This document shows positions 37,646-38,716 of a stretch of 38,716 bases of DNA, piece by piece. The position numbers were made by a program, and so were the translations under genes. The notes under the pieces are model-generated. The model had not been told where the DNA came from, did no database searches, and worked only from the letters and a program-made list of their open reading frames with translations. The stretch's first letter is position 1. The number at the start of each line of letters is the position of its first letter. Origin of the DNA: a virus (Duplodnaviria > Heunggongvirae > Uroviricota > Caudoviricetes); IMG/VR virus record IMGVR_UViG_2740892369_000044. One strand, written 5' to 3'.

Positions 37646-38185
37646 TTAATTAAACCAGCTGTCCGATTTGTTCTCTTCTGCTTTGCCCACGCGTTTCATC
37701 AGATCGCGACCGCCTTCAGTCATATTTCTGTTGGCGTCAGCTTCAGATTGCACCACATCGGTTTGCGCAGCTTTGTGCTTCAGTTCCTGATCGATAAATT
37801 CGTTTTCTCGCTTAACGCGGGCTTCTTCTTTTGCCAGCGCCAGTTTTTGTTTCTGAATCTCTAAGCTGCGTAGCTCATCTTCATAACTTTGAGCGCGTTT
37901 TTTGTCCGCAGAGGCTTCGGCGTCCAGTTTATCCTGACGAGCTTTCTTATTTGCCGCTGCCGTTGCCGCTCTTTTGTTAGCGGCGGCCTGGGCATTTGCG
38001 CGACGTTGCTTCTCTTGCTGGATTTCCCTGTTGCGCTCCGCGACCCATTCGTCATGCTGCCTTTGCTCTTCATTTTTACCTTGCTGTTCAGCTTCTGCTA
38101 CAGCAGAGAGTTGATCCTGCAATGATGAGGCGATAGCCGGATAGCTTAAGGAGGCCAAGATGGCGCAAAGAAAAACTTTCTTCAT
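37646..38185 (-). CDS. Secreted or periplasmic coiled-coil protein (signal peptide, Lys/Glu/Ala-rich)
   Basis: 179 aa; N-terminal signal MKKVFLCAILASLSYPAIASS; charged helical repeats. Confidence 0.5.
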   Translation of the reverse strand: MKKVFLCAILASLSYPAIASSLQDQLSAVAEAEQQGKNEEQRQHDEWVAERNREIQQEKQRRANAQAAANKRAATAAANKKARQDKLDAEASADKKRAQSYEDELRSLEIQKQKLALAKEEARVKRENEFIDQELKHKAAQTDVVQSEADANRNMTEGGRDLMKRVGKAEENKSDSWFN

Positions 38186-38200
38186 GACTCCTCCTGATTA

Positions 38201-38716
38201 TTAGCTCTTTTCAGGACATTTAGTATTTGGCTGAATACGCGTTTCGTTATACGTTGTGGTAATAACAACGGCTAAACCTGTCGTAAACTGGCACTCTTTA
38301 CCCACCTGGGTAGAGGTATACACTTTGGTGCCTTCCTTATATGTTAAAGAAACACCTTCCACTAAGGTTTTATCATTCACCATAGAACCCACTGCCGCGC
38401 CTACAGCTCCGCCGCCAACTGCCCCTGCCGTCGTTCCGGAATTGCTGCCAGAACCGACGTTGTGGCCGATAACACCGCCAGCGACTGCGCCAATAAGCGC
38501 GCCGAAGGCTTGTGCGTTCCGTTTATTTTGGGAGTTGTCTACGGCAACTTTTGCGGGAAGAATGGAAATAATATTAACGGTTTTAGTTTCTTGTTTGGTA
38601 TTCAGTTGATCGGTTTGATAAACATCGGCGGCATGATCGTCAGCATTTGACTGGCATCCTGCCAGAGTGAATGACGCTAACATTGCCACAGGCAGAAGAC
38701 ATTTTTTAAATTTCAT
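38201..38716 (-). CDS. Outer-membrane lipoprotein with glycine-zipper (SlyB/17-kDa-antigen-like) domain
   Basis: 171 aa; lipobox LAGC; glycine zipper GALIGAVAGGVIGHNVGSG...GAVGGGAVGAAVGS; start codon is the last base triplet of the window. Confidence 0.6.
   Translation of the reverse strand: MKFKKCLLPVAMLASFTLAGCQSNADDHAADVYQTDQLNTKQETKTVNIISILPAKVAVDNSQNKRNAQAFGALIGAVAGGVIGHNVGSGSNSGTTAGAVGGGAVGAAVGSMVNDKTLVEGVSLTYKEGTKVYTSTQVGKECQFTTGLAVVITTTYNETRIQPNTKCPEKS

Follow-up and report, generated by a model that had tools for sequence, protein, structure and literature searches.

Right boundary of a guaA-inserted phiV10/epsilon15-type prophage and the adjoining Escherichia coli genes yfgH and yfgI

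Introduction

The phages phiV10, epsilon15 and vB_EcoP_ZX5 share one 17-mer, ATTGAGTGGGAATGATT, as the core of attP and attB, and integration of vB_EcoP_ZX5 at the 3' end of guaA was confirmed by PCR and sequencing (PMC9782041). A guaA insertion was also reported for the TL-2011b prophage (PMC3293862). The locus described here has the identical 17-bp core and the same target as the phiV10/epsilon15 type, with a P4-type tyrosine integrase about 190–210 bp from the core, and it shares the gene order of this type, namely tailspike, conversion slot, holins, GH19 endolysin, Rz/Rz1, attP and int.

In E. coli K-12 MG1655, which carries no prophage at this site, the genes are ordered pdeF, yfgG, yfgH, yfgI, guaA, with a gap of 92 bp between yfgI and guaA. 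The K-12 annotation of yfgI is nalidixic acid resistance protein. The pair yfgHI has been handled as a single operon (srgIL), and yfgI mutants are cited as DNA-damage sensitive (PMC11619404). For YfgH, a role in stabilising the outer membrane under envelope stress was described, the protein being SlyB-like yet genetically distinct from SlyB; the suppressors of the two differ (clsA versus mla), there is no cross-complementation, and ring-like YfgH oligomers around lipids or outer-membrane proteins are presented as AlphaFold models only (bioRxiv 10.64898/2025.12.22.696046).

Here, we analyzed a stretch of 38,716 bases from the IMG/VR record IMGVR_UViG_2740892369_000044, referred to as a whole as the window. 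The initial annotation had placed two envelope-protein genes beyond the lysis terminator and left two readings for them, either lysogenic-conversion cargo inside attR or flanking host DNA. Our analysis assigns positions 37554–38716 to the E. coli chromosome and identifies the window as a guaA-inserted prophage of the phiV10/epsilon15 type (Uetakevirus) with its attR core at 37537–37553, a reading to which we give a probability of about 97%.

Results and discussion

The attR core and the right end of the prophage

The right boundary emerged from two alignments that overlap by a short stretch. The alignment with K-12 is near-identical from 37537 to the right, with unrelated sequence before this position; the alignment with phiV10 is near-identical as far as 37553 and gives way to unrelated sequence thereafter. 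Homology to phage genomes in general (phiV10, ZX5, phiv142-3, the epsilon15 group and others) ends at the same base, 37553. The 17 bp common to both sides (37537–37553) are ATTGAGTGGGAATGATT, the core shared by attB, attP, attL and attR, which was recovered from K-12 attB, phiV10 attP, and the attL and tandem junction of strain 97-3250. It consists of the last four sense codons of guaA (ATT, GAG, TGG and GAA, encoding I-E-W-E), the TGA stop and two more bases (TT). A search for a second copy across the window gave none, so that the copy at 37537–37553 is unique there.

To the left of the core, positions 37427–37536 align with phiV10 and other Uetakevirus genomes, not with K-12, and represent the phage-derived left (P) arm of attP on the phage side of attR. 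To the right, positions 37554–37645 align with the K-12 guaA–yfgI spacer and are host intergenic DNA. Directly after the core, the window differs from K-12 by a TTAAT/TGA polymorphism, a spacer difference of 5 nt versus 3 nt. We considered whether this difference was phage-derived and rejected it; prophage-free O26 and O103 strains have the same allele at 100% identity, and the polymorphism is therefore a host allele. All differences between K-12 and the window at this locus, this one included, are allelic. The initial annotation had proposed, as its alternative, a right boundary within 37427–37645, and the core falls inside this interval.

The left attachment site and the empty site

The whole window was found without any difference in E. 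coli 97_3250 (NZ_CP074773.1, 1530556–1569271), which also provides the left flank. In this genome, ATTGAGTGGGAATGATT is present twice in direct orientation, at locus positions 1849 and 39593, with a distance of 37,744 bp between the copies; the exact repeat is limited to these 17 bp in both directions, and guaA flanks it on the left and yfgI on the right. At the left copy, which precedes window position 1 by 208 bp, the guaA reading frame comes to its end (…KPPATIEWE*); the window itself begins at the integrase start codon. The window thus passes attR by 1,163 bases and falls 208 bases short of attL, which bears out the earlier statement that the core could not be located from the window alone. 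The right copy of the repeat corresponds to window positions 37537–37553.

We reconstructed the empty site by joining the last 247 bases of guaA, including the core, to window positions 37554–37783. The resulting sequence is present at full length and 100% identity in prophage-free strains, among them O26 RM8426 and O103 RM8385, with the annotation guaA | yfgI. Counting a site as uninterrupted when at least 80% of the reconstructed sequence was covered in one piece, 4570 of 5426 complete E. coli genomes have it. The guaA–attL–int junction of this phage type was found in 568 genomes and the attR junction of the window in 363.

A second assembly from strain 97-3250 (NZ_CP027599.1, 1482587–1558104) shows two tandem prophage copies in the arrangement attL–phage–attP–phage–attR. 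Many CDS of the second copy are marked as frameshifted, this copy differs from the window in length by a 65-bp offset, and the chromosome exceeds that of NZ_CP074773.1, which represents the same strain with one copy, by 37,653 bp. The strain may genuinely be a tandem lysogen, or the duplication may have arisen during assembly.

These data bear directly on the cargo idea, in which the prophage would extend past the window to a more distant attR and carry the two genes for lysogenic conversion (morons). They do follow the lysis cassette, a common position for morons, both are listed in the phage record of TL-2011b, and a homologous pair exists in P7-like phage-plasmids. However, the genes stay at the same position beside guaA in prophage-free genomes (K-12 MG1655, O26 RM8426, O103 RM8385 and the 4570 genomes with an uninterrupted site), no sequenced free-phage relative contains them, and the exact att direct repeat leaves both outside. 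In addition, the core of the window is identical to the published one (PMC9782041), the TL-2011b record also reaches yfgG and pdeF and is therefore a prophage deposit overshooting attR, and the P7-like copies share only 68% and 46% identity with those of the window. The initial annotation had named retention in a prophage-free strain as the observation that would make these host genes; this is what we found, and the cargo reading is accordingly refuted for this locus, leaving it a probability close to nil.

Identity of the two genes right of the junction

Both minus-strand ORFs reported at the right end of the window are present, at 37646–38185 (179 aa) and 38201–38716 (171 aa). They were described as a signal-peptide coiled-coil protein and a SlyB-like glycine-zipper lipoprotein, a description that our protein comparisons support. 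Based on Pfam, genome matches or the SlyB match, and synteny, the first is yfgI, the orthologue of b2506 encoding a secreted DUF5384 protein, and the second is yfgH, the orthologue of b2505 encoding an outer-membrane glycine-zipper lipoprotein. Both are host genes, near-identical in DNA to their K-12 orthologues and in the identical chromosomal place beside guaA.

By inspection, the N-terminus of YfgI, MKKVFLCAILASLSYPAIA followed by SS, is a signal peptide, after which comes a long, charged, helix-prone stretch. The protein matches Pfam DUF5384 (PF17358) over profile positions 1–145 of 145 (E=1.6e-60; 203.9 bits, cut-off 25), and against solved structures it gave only chance coiled-coil matches (BST2, E of 0.14 or worse). 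YfgH has a lipoprotein signal peptide with the lipobox L-A-G-C, MKFKKCLLPVAMLASFTLAGC, as read from the sequence, and scores 34.0 bits against the Pfam family 'Glycine zipper 2TM' (PF05433; cut-off 24.2). It aligns with solved SlyB (PDB 7OJF/7OJG) over nearly its entire length, lipobox and glycine zipper included (7OJF: E=1.4e-10, residues 8–163), as a distant paralogue and not as SlyB itself. We also considered an exclusion function for YfgH via a TraT-like match, which was too weak to be retained (27.3 bits, below the 31-bit cut-off; PDB 9E2V, E=0.006). The RefSeq start of yfgH is a GTG one codon (3 nt) past the window end, the window itself ending at an in-frame ATG. The 15-nt spacer between the two genes (38186–38200, minus strand) contains a GGAGGAG ribosome-binding site, and judged from this arrangement, yfgH and yfgI are probably co-transcribed in the host strain.

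Distribution of yfgH–yfgI in host genomes

A megablast search with positions 37400–38716 recovered the yfgI/yfgH region, with features annotated as yfgI and yfgH, in 5422 of 5426 complete E. coli genomes. The order pdeF–yfgG–yfgH–yfgI–guaA is kept in E. ruysiae, E. whittamii, E. albertii, Shigella, Pseudocitrobacter and Citrobacter; in Kluyvera and Xenorhabdus, yfgH and yfgI are still paired and have other neighbours. Among these loci, the yfgI–guaA interval of E. whittamii contains extra DNA, and that of Citrobacter sp. ANG330 contains an integrase fragment with 84% identity over 50 aa (locus positions 6949–7098). In Escherichia sp. E1V33, guaA was not found in the 4 kb beyond yfgI. Use of the guaA att site seems to extend over several genera.

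One might ask whether the pair is itself an ancient remnant, left by an earlier guaA-integrating element and fixed in the Escherichia lineage. The two genes always occur together, they change neighbours in Kluyvera and Xenorhabdus, a paralogous pair exists on P7-like phage-plasmids, and the pair was reported absent from S. Typhimurium and present in Typhi (PMC11619404). Moreover, up to about 16% of genomes lack an intact integration site next to the pair. Against such an origin stand the synteny with pdeF–yfgG and guaA, which is conserved in several genera, the unremarkable GC content of the pair (0.49 and 0.47), and the finding that K-12 has no second att repeat or integrase remnant beside it. 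The P7 copies, furthermore, form a deep separate branch, the YfgI-like protein being 47–56% identical to every chromosomal copy compared. We consider a mobile origin very improbable.

Hairpins on both sides of the junction

Between the core and yfgI lies a strong hairpin at 37578–37605 with a 12-pair stem followed by TTTTTT; the minus-strand tail has only four T. Its folding energy is −19.4 kcal/mol on the plus and −18.7 kcal/mol on the minus strand (z about −5.6 and −5.5), and 0 of 200 shuffled sequences folded as well. The initial annotation had called it a strong bidirectional terminator and assigned it to lysis, an assignment that is not correct. Because the hairpin is found unchanged in prophage-free K-12 and is set off from the attR core by 25 nt towards the host, it is host DNA, presumably the native convergent (bidirectional) guaA/yfgI terminator, and not the phage lysis terminator.

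The P' arm of the phage has a look-alike hairpin, AACCCTCTGTTTTTACAGAGGGTTTTTT, 44 nt after the core (−15.9 kcal/mol, z −4.7). The near-copy in this arm (NZ_CP074773.1, locus positions 1910–1937) matches window positions 37581–37608 at 26 of 28 bases. The P' arm hairpin may have survived from a time when the homology to the host site was longer. As far as the sequence can tell, guaA probably keeps a terminator after integration by way of this phage hairpin. In the lysogen, guaA would then end at the phage-supplied hairpin and the phage lysis operon at the host hairpin, if both structures act as terminators.

This arrangement raises the question whether the prophage alters expression of genes that belong to the host, for example by antisense read-through from the lysis operon into yfgI upon induction, with a position effect on the envelope as the outcome. 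The lysis operon does replace guaA as the gene converging on yfgI, and a single hairpin separates the two on the plus strand. This hairpin, however, is the presumed native terminator in intact form (−19.4 kcal/mol, T6 tail), and the convergent layout predates integration. Lysogeny of ZX5 at the same site, moreover, left stress response, antibiotic sensitivity and virulence unchanged (PMC9782041). Taken together, a position effect on yfgH–yfgI appears very improbable.

Integration at guaA

Window positions 1–1257 encode the integrase, with the Pfam domains Arm-DNA-bind_3, Phage_int_M and Phage_integrase, adjoining attP. This P4-type tyrosine integrase would recombine the phage attP core with the identical 17 bases at the guaA end (attB); experimental proof of excision and integration comes from the relative vB_EcoP_ZX5. 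The second copy of the core (37537–37553) marks attR, with the guaA–yfgI spacer, the presumed native terminator and yfgH–yfgI to its right, the presumed host operon reading towards the prophage. At attL, guaA is intact because the core contains its last four sense codons and its stop.

The motif GGTGACGGTAT is present at 37455–37465 in the P arm and again in direct and inverted orientation in the P' arm, which lies upstream of int and outside the window (NZ_CP074773.1, locus 2000–2050). From their placement, we infer that these copies are candidate arm-type binding sites of the integrase. Besides that, CACTCAATT (37508–37516) and AATTGAGTG (37536–37544) make up an inverted repeat reaching across the left edge of the core.

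Gene content of the phage and its relatives

The last phage gene before the junction encodes an Rz-like i-spanin (DUF2514; 36944–37426, plus strand; Pfam E=4.7e-41), and the ORF list contains an embedded Rz1-like o-spanin with the lipobox LALAGC in the +1 frame (about 37143–37418, plus strand). The homologous spanin pair of phiV10 is annotated as Rz and Rz1. The junction itself shows no differences between phiV10 and the window; the tailspike differs.

The conversion slot lies between tailspike and holin (34984–35618) and differs as well: phiV10 has oac, whereas the window has a GtrA-family gene (ORF 35120–35515, minus strand) and a 102-nt glycosyltransferase remnant. The GC content of the slot is low (0.38–0.40), and an O-acetyltransferase fills it in phiV10 and TL-2011b. 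This is where the phage truly holds its O-antigen conversion genes, and the slot appears degraded in this copy.

A further accessory difference adjoins int, where a serine/threonine (calcineurin-like) phosphatase gene (1260–2039, minus strand) takes the place of a small DUF1382 gene in phiV10. A tRNA-Arg gene of the phage (anticodon TCT; 14903–14979, minus strand) was detected by ARAGORN and Rfam between the terminase and portal regions; it was the only hit of the Rfam scan of the whole window, with nothing at 37646–38716.

Among the relatives, TL-2011b (NC_019445 / JQ011317) is integrated in guaA with the same right junction and is 98.9% identical to the window over 37400–38716. Its deposit is a 44.8-kb 'phage' that overshoots attR, by more than the window does, into host yfgI, yfgH, yfgG and part of pdeF. 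This host stretch (NC_019445.1, locus positions 4247–7671) is host sequence inside a phage database. RefSeq names the YfgH-like lipoprotein 'DNA methyltransferase' in TL-2011b (gp55), P7 (upf50.5, NC_050152.1), SJ46 (NC_031129.1) and RCS47 (NC_042128.1), while the GenBank originals of these entries read putative outer membrane lipoprotein. The label looks like a propagated annotation error.

Diverged copies on phage-plasmids

Phage P7 (NC_050152.1, locus positions 4476–5540) carries a diverged pair, upf50.5 (68% identity to yfgH) and upf50.0 (46% to yfgI), and the same pair is found in the P1-like phage-plasmids SJ46, RCS47, JL22 and phi456. The P7 genes have the order of yfgH–yfgI, with the lipoprotein followed by the DUF5384 protein, and keep the lipobox and signal peptide. 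This pair lies within a genuine phage-plasmid genome, between immI (the c4–icd–ant immunity region) and the late tail-tube operon; the P7-like copies are thus real cargo, in contrast to those of the window. Beyond these elements, a DUF5384 homologue with less than 60% identity is found in about 190 plasmid records, most of them typed as non-mobilizable; the records sampled are 80–145 kb in size and come from E. coli, E. fergusonii and Salmonella. A literature search on DUF5384, upf50.5 and upf50.0 found no papers.

Conclusions

Since the phage family, its att core and target gene, and the host genes yfgH and yfgI have all been described already, the biological novelty of the present finding is small; what our analysis adds is the exact boundary for this window only. 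Its value is mainly one of curation. Both the window and the TL-2011b deposit overshoot the prophage, and host genes consequently risk being counted as phage-borne envelope factors. Setting the boundary at 37537–37553 removes this false lead, and the real conversion slot of the phage family is located between tailspike and holin.

A broader view of the gene family can be put forward only tentatively and is, in our estimation, rather unlikely to hold. In this scenario, yfgH–yfgI would be a portable envelope module, vertically inherited and chromosomal in Escherichia, which in P7/P1-like phage-plasmids would act as lysogenic-conversion cargo by stabilising the outer membrane or blocking superinfection. 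If this were true, the cargo idea would be right for the gene family and wrong for the locus in this window.
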